From positions 1,302,001-1,366,000 of the forward strand of contig NW_027191404.1 in the NCBI RefSeq assembly GCF_041146345.1: a DNA stretch of 64,000 nucleotides, read 5' to 3'. Below are positions 57,113-63,315 of this stretch, piece by piece. Position 1 is the stretch's first letter. Each line of letters opens with the position of its first letter. The position numbers and the translations under genes are program-made. This DNA comes from Neodothiora populina (taxonomy: Eukaryota). The notes beneath the pieces are model-generated. The model saw only the letters and a list, made by a program, of their open reading frames with translations. It had not been told where the DNA came from and ran no database searches.

Positions 57113-60100
57113 ATGGGGTCGCGCCTGGAGAACAAATCGGCGCAGGTCCGAAAACGTATCGAAAATCATACTTTCGACAACGAAGAGGGAGAGGAATACG
57201 AGGCATCCAAGTTCGGTGGCTTCAATGACTACTTTCGCCGTAAAAAGATCAAACTACAGAATCTCGATGTCGACTTACGCGCAAAGTCCGCCGACAAACC
57301 ACAAATCTTTCGTGGAGTCGTTGCTCACGTTAATGGATATACTCAGCCGTCACTCAATGATTTACATGCTATGCTTGTCAGCCATGGCGCTGGTTTCGTT
57401 CAGTACCTCGACGGCAAAACCATGGTGACCCACATCATCGCTAGTAGTCTCACCCCTAAAAAGGCTGTTGAATTCAAGAGATATCGCATGGTGAAGCCGG
57501 CCTGGGTAGTTGACAGTGTTCAAGCGGGTCGATTGCTACCTTGGGACAGCTATCGCGTTGTGGATGAGGGGGTTGGCCAAAAGGTGCTGGCTTTCGATAA
57601 TGGTCAGATCACAAGCCAGGTCAATAAACAGGTCAAGGGCTACAGAGAGCAGAGCGATGCTAGCTGGTACACCTCGCAATTGCAACCTTTCCTCCCAACT
57701 GCTGGCCAAGGCTCTCCACTTTTGTCACCAGATCTTGCTCCCACCCCGGAAGTAGAAGACACGCGCGCCTCAGGAGCAGATGATCCGAGTGCATCTTCAG
57801 GCCTGCAAGTTTCTGATCTAAGTGATTTATTGCCTTCCGTTGGGAGTGACATTGGTCCGGCCGCTGCAGATCAACAGACGGCAGCGTCACCGAACACAAT
57901 ACCTCTGGAGTCTGAACTTGATGGAGTCACCCTTGCGCTGGACACGGCAGTAGAGAAGGACGACCAAACTACGGCCAACGAGTCAACGTATGCTGAGCAA
58001 CAACTCCGCGGCACCAAGCGCTCACTCGAGGATGCTCCAGTGTCCCCAAGGAAAGCTACAAAGCTTACTGCCGAAGAACACAATGCGATCCTACTTGCCG
58101 ATCCTCGCTTACGCATGTCAACTGTCGTCAATCCCGATTTTCTTGAACAATACTACCGTGAATCTCGCTTACATCACCTCTCTACCTGGAAAGCCGATCT
58201 CAAGGCCCAGCTCCAATCCATCGCTGCCGAAAAGTCTTCCTCGCAGAAAGCGCTGAGCAAGAGAAGGCCTGGCTCTCGCCGCTATATCATGCATGTCGAC
58301 TTTGACAGTTTCTTTGCCGCTGTCTCGCTCAAGAAGAACCCAGAGTACAAGGACGTACCGGCCGTTGTTGCTCATGGTCCAGGATCCGGCTCAGAAATTG
58401 CGAGCTGCAACTATCCCGCAAGGAAGTTCGGCATCAGCAACGGCATGTGGATGAAGAAAGCACTAGAGTTGTACCCGGAGCTCAAGGTTCTCCCGTACGA
58501 CTTTCCAGCTTATGAAGAAGCCAGTCGCAAATTCTACGATGTCATCTTAGCCACTGGTGGCATTGTGCAGAGCGTGAGCATCGACGAAGCTCTGGTGGAC
58601 ATCAGCGATAAGTGCATCTCTGCCAGTGGATCCGACGGCGTCCACAGGAGTGAGGGTAGTAATTGGCGTGAGCAGTCCAGAGCAGATAAAATCGCAAAGG
58701 ACCTCAGGGACAGAGTGTTTGAGCTCACTGAATGCCATGTCTCGGTCGGTATTGGAGGCAACATCTTGCAGGCTAAGCTTGCGCTTCGAAAGGCCAAGCC
58801 AGCTGGTCAACATCAAGTGAAGCCTGAAGAGGTCCTTGACTTTATCGCGGGACTCGAGGTGCAAAGCTTGCCAGGAGTTGCTTTCAGTATAGCTGGAAAG
58901 CTCGAAGAAATCGGTATCAAGCTTGTCAAAGATATACGCGAAACCTCAAAAGAGCGACTTATCCGCACGTTGGGCCCTAAGACGGGCGAAAAAATTTATG
59001 AATATGCCAGGGGCATTGACAGAACAGAAGTCGGCGACCAGATAATGCGTAAATCTGTTTCCGCAGAGGTCAATTGGGGTGTCCGGTTCGAGAACCAAGA
59101 ACAGGTTGATGAATTCATCCAGAGCCTTTGCGGCGAGCTTCAGCGAAGGCTACTGAAAGAAGGTGTCAAGGGACGACAGCTCACCATGAAAGTCATGCGT
59201 CGTTCGCCTGACGCTCCACTTGATCCTCCCAAGCATCTGGGCCATGGAAAGTGTGACACATACAACAAAAGCCTTCAGCTTGGAGTCGCTACAAATGACG
59301 TTGATACCATTGCGAAAGAGGCATTGGCGACTATGCGTGGTTTTGGCTTTACGCCGGGCGAGCTGCGCGGTCTGGGCGTGCAGATGACCAAGCTGGAGCC
59401 GATCAAAACCGGTCCAGATGGTCGAGCGGATAGCAGTCAGCAAAGACTGCTGTTCAAAAGACCCGAAGCGCCCATAGCCAAGCAAGCTGTCGTCGGAGAT
59501 CCGATCACAGATGACATCGAAACGCCCAAGAAAAACCGTGTCCGTGACGTCTACCAGCCTGCGATTCCATTTAGTCTTTCAACCAATAAGAGTCCTAGTC
59601 GTCGTCCGATGAATATGTTAGGAACCCAGTTCATTGTACCTACACAGATCGACCCCAAAGTCCTTGCAGAACTGCCTGCGGAGCTCCGAGTAAAGCTAAT
59701 GCAGCAAATGGGTTCCAAGAACGTGGTTGCGCGCGAGGACGATCAAGATACAAGTCGTGCTACTCAAACGGTCTCTCGTGCGCACTCTCCGACGCCAGGC
59801 AAACTGGACGAAGACTTTCTAGATTCTCTCCCAGAGGATATTCGTGCAGAAGTCCGCGCTATGTACCGTACTTCTCCCCGCAAAGCAGGAGCGCAGTCGC
59901 TCCTTCCCCAATCCCCTCGAAAGAATCGAGCGCTACCTCCTCCACCGAGGAAACCGCTGACGAAAAAGCGTGGTGGAGGTCTATTTGGTCGTAAAAGTGT
60001 CTTCGGTAAAAGTAGCTCGTCTACACTCACTCAGGCCAATTTCGTCGCGCGCGCTAGTATGCCAACTCCGGAAGCATTTGAGGGCACAGGTACAGATACG

Positions 60101-60655
60101 GATGGTGAATCGACGATACCCGGCATTGATGAAGCATTCCTCCAGGATCTGCCCGAGGCTCTGCGAGAGGAGGTACTAGAGCAACATCGAGCGGCTCAGC
60201 TTCGCCGTGCCGGAGGCATTGAAGTATCGGTGCAAGCTCGAAACCGTCTGAAACAGAGACAGAAGGCACAGCAACAACCGGATAATAGCATCGAAGCCTA
60301 CTTCTTACCGCCCCCACGAAAACCAAAGCCGCAATTCATGAAGAAATACTCGAGCATCGAGGAATTACGTCAAGTCCTTCAGGCATGGGTTCGGGGATTC
60401 AACGACGAGAGCCCCTACGATGAGGACGTCGATGCTCTACAGGCATATCTGCATGACGTAGTTGTGGATGAACGTGATGTTGACAAGGCGGTCAAGGCTG
60501 CGAAATGGCTATCGTGGGTGGTAGGCGAGGAAGTGGAATCGCGTCCGCCGGATACTCAATGTGCTGAAGCATGGTCTGAAGCACTCCTCAGAGTGCAGAA
60601 TGGAATACAGCAGGCGATGACACAACGCGGACTGAACGAAGTGGATTTTGGCTAA
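57113..60655 (+). CDS. REV1: Translesion DNA polymerase / dCMP transferase Rev1
   Basis: FGGFNDYFRRKKIKLQNLD, BRCT (HVNGYTQPS...VKPAWVVDS), SRLHHLSTWK, HVDFDSFF, SIDEA, RKSVSAEVNWG, UBM repeats (LAELPAELR, LDSLPEDIR, LQDLPEALR). Confidence 0.96.
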   Translation: MGSRLENKSAQVRKRIENHTFDNEEGEEYEASKFGGFNDYFRRKKIKLQNLDVDLRAKSADKPQIFRGVVAHVNGYTQPSLNDLHAMLVSHGAGFVQYLDGKTMVTHIIASSLTPKKAVEFKRYRMVKPAWVVDSVQAGRLLPWDSYRVVDEGVGQKVLAFDNGQITSQVNKQVKGYREQSDASWYTSQLQPFLPTAGQGSPLLSPDLAPTPEVEDTRASGADDPSASSGLQVSDLSDLLPSVGSDIGPAAADQQTAASPNTIPLESELDGVTLALDTAVEKDDQTTANESTYAEQQLRGTKRSLEDAPVSPRKATKLTAEEHNAILLADPRLRMSTVVNPDFLEQYYRESRLHHLSTWKADLKAQLQSIAAEKSSSQKALSKRRPGSRRYIMHVDFDSFFAAVSLKKNPEYKDVPAVVAHGPGSGSEIASCNYPARKFGISNGMWMKKALELYPELKVLPYDFPAYEEASRKFYDVILATGGIVQSVSIDEALVDISDKCISASGSDGVHRSEGSNWREQSRADKIAKDLRDRVFELTECHVSVGIGGNILQAKLALRKAKPAGQHQVKPEEVLDFIAGLEVQSLPGVAFSIAGKLEEIGIKLVKDIRETSKERLIRTLGPKTGEKIYEYARGIDRTEVGDQIMRKSVSAEVNWGVRFENQEQVDEFIQSLCGELQRRLLKEGVKGRQLTMKVMRRSPDAPLDPPKHLGHGKCDTYNKSLQLGVATNDVDTIAKEALATMRGFGFTPGELRGLGVQMTKLEPIKTGPDGRADSSQQRLLFKRPEAPIAKQAVVGDPITDDIETPKKNRVRDVYQPAIPFSLSTNKSPSRRPMNMLGTQFIVPTQIDPKVLAELPAELRVKLMQQMGSKNVVAREDDQDTSRATQTVSRAHSPTPGKLDEDFLDSLPEDIRAEVRAMYRTSPRKAGAQSLLPQSPRKNRALPPPPRKPLTKKRGGGLFGRKSVFGKSSSSTLTQANFVARASMPTPEAFEGTGTDTDGESTIPGIDEAFLQDLPEALREEVLEQHRAAQLRRAGGIEVSVQARNRLKQRQKAQQQPDNSIEAYFLPPPRKPKPQFMKKYSSIEELRQVLQAWVRGFNDESPYDEDVDALQAYLHDVVVDERDVDKAVKAAKWLSWVVGEEVESRPPDTQCAEAWSEALLRVQNGIQQAMTQRGLNEVDFG

Positions 60656-60958: not shown

Positions 60959-61852
60959 CTACCTGTGGGTACCATTCCCGCCAATAATGTGACCGAATCG
61001 TGAAACAGACGATCCAGAGAAGTCACTGCGAAAGACGCCGATAGTCTGCAACCTTTCTATCTTGACATCACCAAAGTACTCATTGCCAACATTAACGTTC
61101 GCTCTCCCCCCGACTTTGTTATTGTCAAAGACCAAGCCTCTTTGCTCAGCGACGACATCGGCAGCATGCTGCAACTCGATATCGTCACCGACGAAGCCAG
61201 GGTCACGCACGACTTCCAATTGCTTCTGGTCTAGAGCAGAGATGTCAGCTTGCAGAAGTTCCCGCTGATACGTTTGGTGAAGTGGGAAGCTCTCGACGAA
61301 CTCATTCGTCGCCGTGCAGATATTGTCGAGGAGGTTGTCGAAATACGCTTTCCTGTAAATGACCCAGCGGGCCTTCGCCACCAACCCCGTGCTGGGGACG
61401 ACGTCGACGTCGACGTTCACTGCTCGACGACGACGGCCGAGTCTAGTCCGGATAGCGAGACCCAGGCCCAAGTCATCAGCGCTGGCACCACCCTCGCCTT
61501 TCTGCAGCGCTTCTTCATCCTGTATACCGCGTTGTCTCGCGTACTTCTTCGACTTGGCCTCGGCCCTCTCAAACGCCTGATGGATATCATCGAATATCTC
61601 CTTTGCCTTGAGCGTGTCCAGTTCACCGAAAGACCGAGCCTCTGTACTCATCGAGCCACCGTCTCCAACGACCGACTCGAGTGCTTCCTCCCATTGCTTC
61701 AGCCGCAGCCCGGCCATGGCCAGTCGGGCTTTGGACAGCGCAAAGTCCCCCTCGTAGTTGCGCGCGAACTGGATCGTCTGGCAGAGCTGGATACACGCGT
61801 TGATGGTACCCGGGACCCCGAGGACCGCTGAGGCCGTTCCGCTCCCTGACAT
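60959..61852 (-). CDS. HET-S-like protein: HeLo (prion-inhibition and propagation) domain plus putative C-terminal amyloid motif
   Basis: N-terminus LGVPGTINACIQLCQTIQFARNYEGDF..SKARL..A.LRL.QW.EAL parallels the HET-s/S N-terminus. KARWVIY.K..F..LL..I....E.VE.FP is the HeLo C-terminal motif. The tail has two 21-aa pseudo-repeats. Confidence 0.85.
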   Translation of the reverse strand: MSGSGTASAVLGVPGTINACIQLCQTIQFARNYEGDFALSKARLAMAGLRLKQWEEALESVVGDGGSMSTEARSFGELDTLKAKEIFDDIHQAFERAEAKSKKYARQRGIQDEEALQKGEGGASADDLGLGLAIRTRLGRRRRAVNVDVDVVPSTGLVAKARWVIYRKAYFDNLLDNICTATNEFVESFPLHQTYQRELLQADISALDQKQLEVVRDPGFVGDDIELQHAADVVAEQRGLVFDNNKVGGRANVNVGNEYFGDVKIERLQTIGVFRSDFSGSSVSRFGHIIGGNGTHR

Positions 61853-63315
61853 GGTCTTTTATTGTAGGCTCGGGGGGATTTGAACGATCAGGTGGGATGT
61901 GAAAGACGAAATCTGACCGCGACCCCCCATGGCACATGCATATATCTACTTATAAGCGCCCGTGGCGTCCAATGGGGTCACCTTACCACTGATCTGCGTT
62001 GTCCCTGCTGCTGCTCCTTTCGTTTGCCTCGTGCAGATAATTAATGCTTATCTAAGTGGAGGGGGCGAAGTCTTACTCGTTCGAGGCGTATCTTCAATAC
62101 AGCCCAATTAGACGGCCTTGAGGAATGAAGCGTGTTTCGTACCGAGTCTTGGGGCCTGGTGGTGACCGGTCTTGGGTGCCGCAGGATGACAATGGCGCAT
62201 GTTCTCTTCGAAACGCACTCTTTCGCCTCCGCTTGATCGTTTCCACTTAAGCAATCCATGCACAGCCTGGCAAGATGATCTAGGTCTGGTGACCGCATGA
62301 AATTAGCATTATGATTCTGCACCTCCCTGGACCTCAACGAAGCAGCACCGCGGGCAGCCTTTTTCAGCATAAGACACAAGATGCACATTCCACCGTACAC
62401 AGGTCCTGGCTGGATGCAGAGTGCGAAGTCACAGGCGCGTAGTGATAGACAAATATGTAACAATTGTGTGACATTATGCATTATTAGATAATAGGCAAGA
62501 GCGCTACGGACCTCCAAGTTCTCGGAAGGCGGCCAAAGAGGGAATCGAATGCTCTCTTGACACGTATGGGACTCAAGCCTCCCAGGTTCCCCTATCCCAT
62601 TTGTTGCGCGGAAGAGAAGAAAACGGCTAGACCAAGTGCAAGTCACTTCGGATCATGATCTTCCGCCCTCTCAACCGGTGTGCACTGAAGGAAAGGAAGA
62701 TGCCAATAACAATCGATGGAAGGCAGTGGTCGTGGCATTATATACAATTATCTCCGCAGCGAAACAGAATATATGGTTTCTCTTGTGCGCTTCAATAGAA
62801 GAATTTAATTATGTTATGGTTTTTGTCCAGAAACGTGATTGTTAATATATCGGAAGCGACAGTCGGAGATTATAATTCCTGACATTTGGATTCCGAGGGT
62901 TGCCATACAGGAAAGATGTGCGGACTATCCGAAGATGGATTAGATCAAGGGCTGTTTCAATAGCTGCTGTCTGGAGGTTTCCATTGCGATGGGGTGGCCG
63001 ATAAGGTGAAATGGCCAGTTTCAGCAAGAATACATCCGAAGAGGTTGGAATTGAAATGGCCACGTCGCGCCAGCCAAGGTAATACAGGATGCCACAATCG
63101 CGGCACAAGCCCTAGAACGTGCCATGGACGATGCGGAAATATAACGCCGGGCTATGCTATACGTGAAGATTCGTGAAGAAGAGCCGTGAAAAAAGCGTTC
63201 CGCCCATCATGAGATCCAGAAATAGGTCGTGGGCTGGCTAAAAGCGACAAAGAAAAGAATACGCAAAAGAACAGCAAAGATCGGGGGCATGCGGAATTGG
63301 TCACATCCCGATCGC

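Follow-up and report, generated by a model that had tools for sequence, protein, structure and literature searches.

Does the reverse-strand gene near the end of this 64,000-nucleotide stretch of Neodothiora populina DNA (NCBI RefSeq assembly GCF_041146345.1, contig NW_027191404.1, positions 1,302,001 to 1,366,000; hereafter the window) encode a cell-death effector of the HET-S type, and what would its C-terminal tail respond to? The gene (60959..61852, minus strand, as are all its features given below) is an intronless open reading frame (ORF) for a protein of 297 amino acids, which an initial annotation, made from the letters alone, read as a HET-S-like executioner with an N-terminal HeLo domain and a divergent two-repeat amyloid tail. 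The present analysis supports that reading, since every part of it that could be tested in silico held: the gene probably encodes a HET-S-type cell-death effector whose tail is a two-motif, HET-s-related amyloid switch, templated by a matching amyloid.

HeLo domain

The window protein matched the Pfam family PF14479 (HeLo) between residues 5 and 208 (61229..61840), with an E-value of 3.9e-24 and a score of 86 bits, above the cut-off of 23.2, and no other Pfam family reached E <= 1. A phmmer search against all PDB chains returned the N-terminal domains of HET-S and HET-s (2wvo, 2wvn and 2wvq, E 4.4e-11 to 1.1e-9); the one remaining match was at chance level (E 0.34). The full-length AlphaFold2 (AF2) model, for which a 66-sequence alignment of HeLo relatives was used, had a mean predicted local distance difference test (pLDDT) score of 82.5 and a predicted template modelling (pTM) score of 0.75, with a helix at residues 12-26 and a helical structure up to about residue 237. 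Comparison of this model with the PDB by Foldseek retrieved 2wvn, 2wvq and 2wvo (E 9e-8 to 2e-7, template modelling (TM) scores on the target of 0.73-0.78), while the next match had an E of 0.12. The presence of the HeLo domain was confirmed in this way both by the family profile and by the HET-s/HET-S fold.

The best conserved part of the domain is the N-terminal segment, residues 1-35 (61748..61852), which contains Asn32; among five full-length members of the tail family described below, mean pairwise identity over residues 1-40 was 57%. Asn32 pairs with H33 of HET-S (2wvo) and with P33 of HET-s (2wvn) in the phmmer alignments, and the initial annotation had taken this Asn as a sign of an active, HET-S-type domain. 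Pro33 is what disables HET-s. The alignment stands, but the argument drawn from it is weak, since Asn is simply the commonest residue of this column in the 66-sequence alignment (22/66); His occupies 8 rows, and Pro is outside the eight commonest residues, which cover 62 rows.

Homologues and conservation of the tail

Two relatives were found at E <= 0.001 in a word-indexed search of 5.8 billion proteins, namely a Logan protein and Polychaeton citri K431DRAFT_289751. A HMMER scan of 1.84 billion cluster representatives with a three-sequence profile yielded 773 HeLo relatives at E <= 0.001, six of them at E <= 1e-30. When the best 150 of these 773 were scored with a hidden Markov model (HMM) of the tail alone, five proteins (P0001-P0005) and a fragment of 86 amino acids (P0025) had E-values of 3e-40 to 3.5e-20, and the next protein beyond them had 2e-8. 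These six homologues all carry the same tail, and together with the window protein they make up a family of seven members.

Identity was compared in blocks among the five full-length members, with mean pairwise values of 42% for the HeLo domain, 23% for the poorly conserved linker (residues 209-237, 61142..61228), 52% for the first repeat (r1), 8% for the loop (measured over residues 260-268) and 58% for the second repeat (r2, measured over residues 269-291). The repeat blocks are the best conserved parts after the N-terminal helix. All seven members agree at ten residues of the tail (L240, G256, N257, V273, F278, G280, F286, G287, H288 and G291), and the spacing between the glycines at position 19 of the two repeats is 31 residues in six members and 29 in one. 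At the sequence level, two conserved blocks around an unconserved loop form the pattern expected of two structural elements on a flexible connector. The suggestion that the motif might be decaying was rejected because well conserved blocks, kept in all six homologues found, flank an unconserved loop.

A FastTree phylogeny of the HeLo domain alone was built from 136 rows, taken from proteins of 240-340 amino acids and each cut to the first 215 residues; it included P0001 with an N-terminal overcall trimmed but neither shorter fragments nor longer proteins. The five full-length members formed a single clade with Shimodaira-Hasegawa-like support of 99, and the domain and the tail were therefore inherited together. 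The only member of the family found under an organism name is P0002, the hypothetical protein K431DRAFT_289751 of Polychaeton citri CBS 116435, which is 42% identical over 98% of its length and has the same tail. The nearest cluster outside the family (P0013) belongs to Rachicladosporium, Oleoguttula and Cryoendolithus. These named relatives point, short of proof, to a Dothideomycete source. Metagenome contigs gave 61 pattern matches, none of which was a relative of the window protein by tblastn.

The closest homologue, P0001 (46% identity), is a gene call of 391 amino acids on a 4.1-kb contig. Its 63 additional N-terminal residues and about 40 additional C-terminal residues are not shared by any other member, and the call is probably over-extended.

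Two repeats in register

The tail was numbered after Daskalov et al. 2015 (PMC4518210), who place the conserved Gly of the HET-s-related amyloid motif (HRAM) at position 19. Positions 1-21 of r1 are then residues 238-258 (61079..61141), with Gly256 at position 19 and Asn257 at position 20, and those of r2 are residues 269-289 (60986..61048), with Gly287 and His288 at the same positions; the variable loop of 10 amino acids between them covers residues 259-268 (61049..61078). The initial annotation had framed the same repeats as residues 240-260 (starting at 61135) and 271-291, with a 10-residue loop at 261-270 and a following G-N-G, and these coordinates are correct.

When the r1 profile of the family was slid along the protein, residues 269-289 scored 8.61, the best of 236 windows, with -1.37 for the next (z 4.2). 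When the columns were permuted 20,000 times, this score was reached in only 0.085% of cases (p = 8.5e-4). At the family level, r1 and r2 are accordingly a weak but significant repeat, in register and with a period of 31 residues, in agreement with the two-repeat tail and 10-residue loop first proposed. In the window sequence by itself the repeat is weak, with only 2 of 21 residues identical between r1 and r2.

The residues of r1 and r2 correspond as Leu/Ile at position 3, Phe/Val at 5, Asn or Ser at 8, Val/Phe at 10, Ala/Ser at 14, Val-Ile/Ser at 16, Met-Val/Phe at 18, Gly/Gly at 19 and Asn/His at 20, with a Gly at position 12 of r2. Asn at position 8 occurs in 6/7 members in r1 and in 4/7 in r2, the r2 of the window protein having Ser. 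Position 15 is Asn in r1 and Val in r2 of the window protein, and in the family it is variable in r1 and Val in 6/7 in r2. Within the family, position 16 is Val, Ile or Tyr in r1 and Ser, Val or Ala in r2, and position 18 is Val or Met in r1 and Phe in r2. Position 17 is Asp or Asn in r1 and faces Arg in 5/7 r2 copies, a pairing that could possibly form a salt bridge between rungs.

The second repeat had been described as lacking both Asn residues of the HET-s ladders, with Ile and His in their places. This was correct, but the first repeat lacks the first ladder Asn as well, with Leu240 at that position. The Ile and His of r2 are features of the family, since His is present in 7/7 members and Ile in 6/7 (Phe in 1/7). 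After r2, an Arg-x-Tyr segment is kept by 5/6 homologues and is missing from the window protein, whose C-terminal end (residues 290-297, 60962..60985) diverges from its homologues in the alignments.

Predicted structure of the tail

The tail was modelled with high scores in the full-length AF2 prediction, in which the 10-residue means of pLDDT from residue 231 onwards were 88, 94, 92, 79, 94 and 92. Strands were predicted at 240-243, 246-247, 252-255 and 258-259 in r1 and at 271-274, 277-278, 283-286 and 289-290 in r2, each r2 strand lying exactly 31 residues after its r1 counterpart. A prediction of the tail alone (residues 230-297, 30-row alignment) gave the same strands with a pLDDT of 78.

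Foldseek comparison of the tail with 350,542 PDB chains returned four matches at E <= 10, of which the top three were structures of the HET-s(218-289) amyloid (2rnm, 2lbu and 2mus), with TM-scores of 0.45-0.54, root-mean-square deviations (rmsd) of 3.2-4.3 A and 24-26% identity at E 1.4-1.9. VIA-align superposed the tail model on the HET-s amyloid over 59-60 residues (Z 4.6-4.8, rmsd 2.9-3.0 A), placing model residue 9-10 (residues 238-239 of the protein) on HET-s 224-225, which is the register deduced from the sequence. In a scan of 48,161 PDB representatives, only 2kj3 (HET-s, Z 4.6) and 6eka (HELLF, Z 4.4) reached Z >= 2. The tail is thus predicted to be a two-rung beta-solenoid, and the structural match of the model is specific, though its scores are modest.

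Relation to HET-s-related amyloid motifs

The Gly residues G256 and G287 occupy the only invariant columns of the 66-sequence HeLo alignment (66/66), and they align with the position-19 Gly of r1 and r2 in relatives that match PF11558 (HET-s_218-289). Four such relatives, P0035, P0063, P0068 and P0070, match that family at 51-85 bits (cut-off 32.2). With the seven tails as its starting point, an iterated hmmsearch grew from 11 to 99 of 151 proteins and reached these PF11558-positive tails in round 2 (P0063), round 3 (P0035 and P0068) and round 4 (P0070). With a database of only 151 proteins the E-values are lenient and the iteration can drift, so the profile link is one of continuity rather than strict proof of homology. 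Taken together, the iterated profile search and the predicted fold support a relationship of the tail to HET-s-type motifs.

According to PMC4518210, HRAMs lie in the last ~80 residues of HeLo, HeLo-like or sesA proteins that are under 310 residues long, as two 21-residue copies joined by a loop of 6-18 residues. The window protein has 297 residues, its motif is at residues 238-289, and its two copies are in register around a 10-residue loop. The HRAM consensus in the same source has hydrophobic residues at positions 5, 8, 10, 16 and 18 and a preferred, not obligatory, Arg or Lys at position 15. In the window protein these five positions are F, N, V, V and V in r1 and V, S, F, S and F in r2, so that 7/10 are hydrophobic. 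Judged by its sequence, the tail agrees with the core definition of an HRAM, apart from position 8, which is polar, and position 15, where a basic residue is lacking.

The five HRAM classes are distinguished in PMC4518210 by Asn (HRAM1), Gln (HRAM2) or His (HRAM3) at position 3, by Gln at position 18 (HRAM4) and by Gln at position 16 (HRAM5). None of these five signatures fits the tail family at positions 3, 16 and 18, and the 155-sequence supplementary table of that study contains none of the family's characteristic strings. Among the papers listed by literature searches on HeLo proteins and HRAMs, none dealt with this tail family. The gene belongs to a known kind of system, a HeLo effector with an HRAM amyloid switch, and is set apart from HRAM1-5 by its signature residues and strings. 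The seven members seen, none of them annotated for the tail, appear from these comparisons to be a new and rare HRAM-tailed HeLo subfamily.

Comparison with other two-repeat tails

The comparison set was drawn from the 151 proteins examined: 93 of them had two-repeat tails that could be placed in register, of which 7 belong to the family and 86 do not. Gly at position 19 is nearly universal in the non-family tails (85/86 in r1, 86/86 in r2). Position 3, which is Leu in r1 and Ile or Phe in r2 of the family, is His in 36 and 33 of the 86 non-family tails (r1 and r2, respectively) and Asn in 12 and 15. Position 8, Asn or Ser in the family, is mostly hydrophobic outside it, with Asn in 10/86 (r1) and 12/86 (r2), and His at position 20 of r2, present in 7/7 family members, is found in 10/86 others. 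Each deviation of the family has precedents among the 86 non-family tails, but in none of them do both repeats have a hydrophobic residue at position 3 together with Asn at position 8. Compared with repeats outside the family, those of the family had best identities of 29-48%.

Both repeats of a non-family tail carry the same class of residue more often than in shuffles, at position 3 in 53/86 tails (22 expected) and at position 8 in 70/86 (44 expected). This agreement is consistent with in-register stacking of the repeats, and shared ancestry inflates the counts.

The nearest outside tails, of HRAM3-type and intermediate kind, are those of P0008 and P0058 (Penicillium subrubescens) and of the P0013 cluster, which scored E 2e-8 to 5e-7 with the tail HMM (150 proteins) and were reached in the first round of the iterated search. 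They share with the family the Gly-Asn/Asp-x-Tyr end of r1 and the Gly-His of r2, and P0013 also has Leu/Ile at position 3. They differ in their hydrophobic position 8, and most of them have His at position 3.

Other relatives have different C-terminal ends. P0013 (455 amino acids) and P0154 (512 amino acids), from rock-inhabiting black fungi, have about 170 or more residues beyond r2; in P0013 this part gave a sub-threshold match to Cutinase (E 0.016). Such extensions could be a fusion or a gene-model artefact. P0073, a HeLo relative of 417 amino acids, ends in at least three tandem Ser/Gly/Thr/Asn-rich units of about 23 residues. P0026, P0027, P0032, P0062 and P0064 end in a single Gly/Asn/Gln-rich motif instead of two HRAM repeats, which we take to resemble the PP motif. 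HeLo clades seem to have swapped tail types, since close relatives end in this different single motif.

Gene model and genomic context

The ORF is unbroken, with 297 codons followed by a TAG stop at 60959-60961. Its ATG is the first start after an upstream in-frame stop located two codons before, and the frame from stop to stop is only 2 amino acids longer. Alignments with the homologues span the window protein from the first to the last residue, and the homologues end within a few residues of it; no intron or extension is needed because of this end-to-end agreement. A 3'-end intron lengthening the tail was considered and rejected, as the C-termini of the homologues differ from that of the window protein by a few residues at most.

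The gene is convergent with REV1 (57113-60655, plus strand). About 1.4 kb upstream of it lies a fragment of a PAP2-family gene, which runs to the end of the window. The 1.4-kb interval between the start of the HeLo gene and the 3' end of the PAP2-family gene (61853-63315) presumably holds the promoter and is long for a gene-dense window; its only long frame, at 62041-62652 (minus strand, 203 amino acids from stop to stop), had no Pfam match. A Pfam scan covered 28 of the 72 window ORFs of at least 150 amino acids, namely the larger non-overlapping ones. The families identified included a POT transporter, GH43, polyprenyl synthase, Vma12, a DEAD_2 (XPD-like) helicase, Kelch, Yippee, a kinase, ATG7, a deaminase, RabGAP, RRM, Pol epsilon subunit B, Elongin A, THOC7, MCM, a nucleoplasmin-like FKBP and REV1. 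The region from 1 to 60655 is dense with such housekeeping genes, an unusual setting for a cell-death effector, which is usually described beside a gene for a NOD-like receptor (NLR).

Proposed mechanism and alternative explanations

In the mechanism that we propose by analogy with HET-S and the NLR NWD2 (PMC4518210 and PMC4344463, as sources for the templating of the tail and the activation of the HeLo domain), the HeLo domain would be inactive while the C-terminal tail is unfolded. Presentation of a matching amyloid template would cause r1 and r2 of the tail, held together by the flexible 10-residue loop, to stack in register as two rungs of a beta-solenoid. In the paradigm, the template is a single motif (r0) at the N-terminus of the cognate NLR, presented after the NLR has oligomerised. 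The change of fold would then make the HeLo domain release its N-terminal helix and insert into the membrane, killing the cell. It is from the HET-S/NWD2 paradigm that we infer that the tail forms amyloid, that an NLR templates it, that the protein attacks the membrane and that its seeding specificity is private.

This specificity would be set at four positions: 3 (Leu/Ile), 8 (Asn/Ser), 17 (Asp/Asn of r1 facing Arg of r2) and 20 (Asn of r1 over His of r2). HELLF and HET-s are reported to have a common backbone and no cross-seeding, with the barrier breached when HRAM-specific side chains are swapped (bioRxiv 10.1101/2020.07.06.188508). Since such side chains decide cross-seeding between HET-s and HELLF, positions 3, 8, 17 and 20 may plausibly set a private channel; the swapped sub-motifs are numbered 1-4 and 16-18 in that preprint, and their overlap with the positions of the family presumes that this numbering corresponds to that of PMC4518210. 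A more tentative proposal, with the balance tilting somewhat against it, is that the family is a sixth private class of HRAM, confined to a small Dothideomycete-like lineage, with an unlinked or non-NLR partner and a housekeeping locus. Its seeding code would have been rewritten at positions reported to control cross-seeding: position 3 would be hydrophobic where other classes have an Asn/Gln/His ladder, an internal ladder of Asn would have shifted to position 8, Asp and Arg would pair at position 17, and Asn would lie over His in a mixed ladder at position 20.

Several observations weigh against a HET-S-type effector with an amyloid switch. PF11558 had no match in the window protein (E <= 1) or in the six homologues (E <= 0.1), and the HET-s(218-289) chains were not matched by phmmer against the PDB at E <= 10. 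According to PMC4518210, only 38/155 HRAM proteins match PF11558. The initial annotation was right to call the tail a divergent variant, because the canonical PF11558 model does not recognise it. The HRAM consensus is only partly kept, with a polar position 8, Ser at position 16 of r2 and neither Arg nor Lys at position 15, and no aromatic residue follows r2, the terminal F-W of HET-s being absent, as had been noted. The structural scores are modest (the Foldseek E of 1.4-1.9 is not significant, and the VIA-align Z is below 5), and AF2 was trained on HET-s structures, so that the model may lean on them. No NACHT or NB-ARC domain was found in the 28 window ORFs scanned, which held housekeeping families only; searches of 1577 six-frame pieces of the window with the r1, r2 and tail HMMs revealed no second copy of the motif (best other E 0.5); and the only longer proteins with the tail motif were members of the HeLo family (2/2072 and 5/7999 candidates). 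These missing NLR matches are weak evidence, because a single 21-residue r0 could hardly reach E <= 10 in a database of 5.8 billion proteins.

The partner search bears most directly on the idea that the tail is a HET-s-like amyloid with no dedicated NLR, a self-contained switch that would be set off by a different protein bearing the motif, by converting spontaneously in the manner of a prion (allorecognition of the het-s/het-S type) or by heterologous seeds. Neither an NLR nor a second copy of the motif turned up in the flanking sequence (61 kb on one side, 2 kb on the other), the tail-profile searches found no NLR-length protein with the motif, and HRAM HeLo genes were without an adjacent NLR in 57/155 cases (98/155 with one; PMC4518210), adjacency being frequent and not required. 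Yet missing linkage of this common kind is no proof of a missing partner, as the NLR and HeLo genes are separated by 95 kb in one Basidiomycete case (PMC9815663), and a single 21-residue repeat is undetectable at database-wide E-values; such a switch is an unlikely explanation of the tail. Somewhat less likely still is a soluble, non-amyloid beta module, formed inside the monomer, that would regulate or stabilise the HeLo domain with no templating. It would explain why AF2 folds the single-chain tail confidently, and the Foldseek and VIA-align scores against amyloids are not significant by themselves. Set against this, the tail is a single two-rung layer that lacks a hydrophobic cap, of 48,161 chains only two, both of them amyloid fibril subunits, match it structurally, its conservation pattern and invariant arc glycines are those of HRAMs, and a profile link leads from it to canonical prion-forming domains.

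A relic HeLo gene, left without its partner and with a drifting motif, might be read from the Ser at position 8 of the window r2 in place of the usual Asn and from the loss of the Arg-x-Tyr after r2. It is highly improbable given the intact ORF, the contrast between repeats (52-58%) and loop (8%) and the ten tail residues that are invariant in 7/7. The templated HET-S-type effector is the reading that we favour.

Comparison with known systems and significance

The best known relative of this design is HET-S/HET-s of Podospora anserina, which consists of a HeLo domain and the HRAM1 prion-forming domain 218-289 (PDB 2wvn/2wvo and 2rnm/2kj3, respectively) and has the NLR NWD2 as its partner. The window protein has the same domain order, a size just under 300 amino acids and the same HeLo fold; its tail has in common with HET-s the two 21-residue repeats, Gly at position 19, a small residue at position 14, hydrophobic residues at positions 5, 10 and 18 and Asn at position 20 of r1, and HET-s residues 224-290 superpose on the predicted two-rung solenoid in the expected register. 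Unlike HET-s, it has Leu/Ile instead of Asn at position 3, Asn/Ser instead of a hydrophobic residue at position 8 and His at position 20 of r2, a loop of 10 residues against 15, no aromatic C-terminal segment and no adjoining NLR gene. HELLF, also of P. anserina, combines a HeLo-like domain with HRAM5, and its amyloid structure 6eka superposes on the tail model over 53 residues (Z 4.4, rmsd 2.9 A). HELLF demonstrates that HRAMs of widely different sequence can keep the solenoid and not cross-seed (bioRxiv 10.1101/2020.07.06.188508), but its N-terminal domain is HeLo-like, not HeLo, and its Gln-rich HRAM5 sub-motifs are absent from the window tail. P0002 of Polychaeton citri is an orthologue-grade counterpart, annotated only as a hypothetical or HeLo-domain protein with no mention of the tail.

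HeLo proteins with diversified HRAMs are common in Ascomycota, and 93 of the 151 proteins examined had a two-repeat tail, so the gene is otherwise of an expected kind. Among functional amyloids, HET-s-type motifs are understood best, and they serve as the model for prion seeding barriers set by sequence. The family would be a natural, conserved variant in which the predicted backbone is kept and the side chains at positions 3, 8, 17 and 20 are changed; since side-chain swaps are reported to breach the barrier between HET-s and HELLF, it would offer a ready-made test case for the rules of seeding. For the fungal immune repertoire, it would represent one more, likely independent, channel of death signalling.

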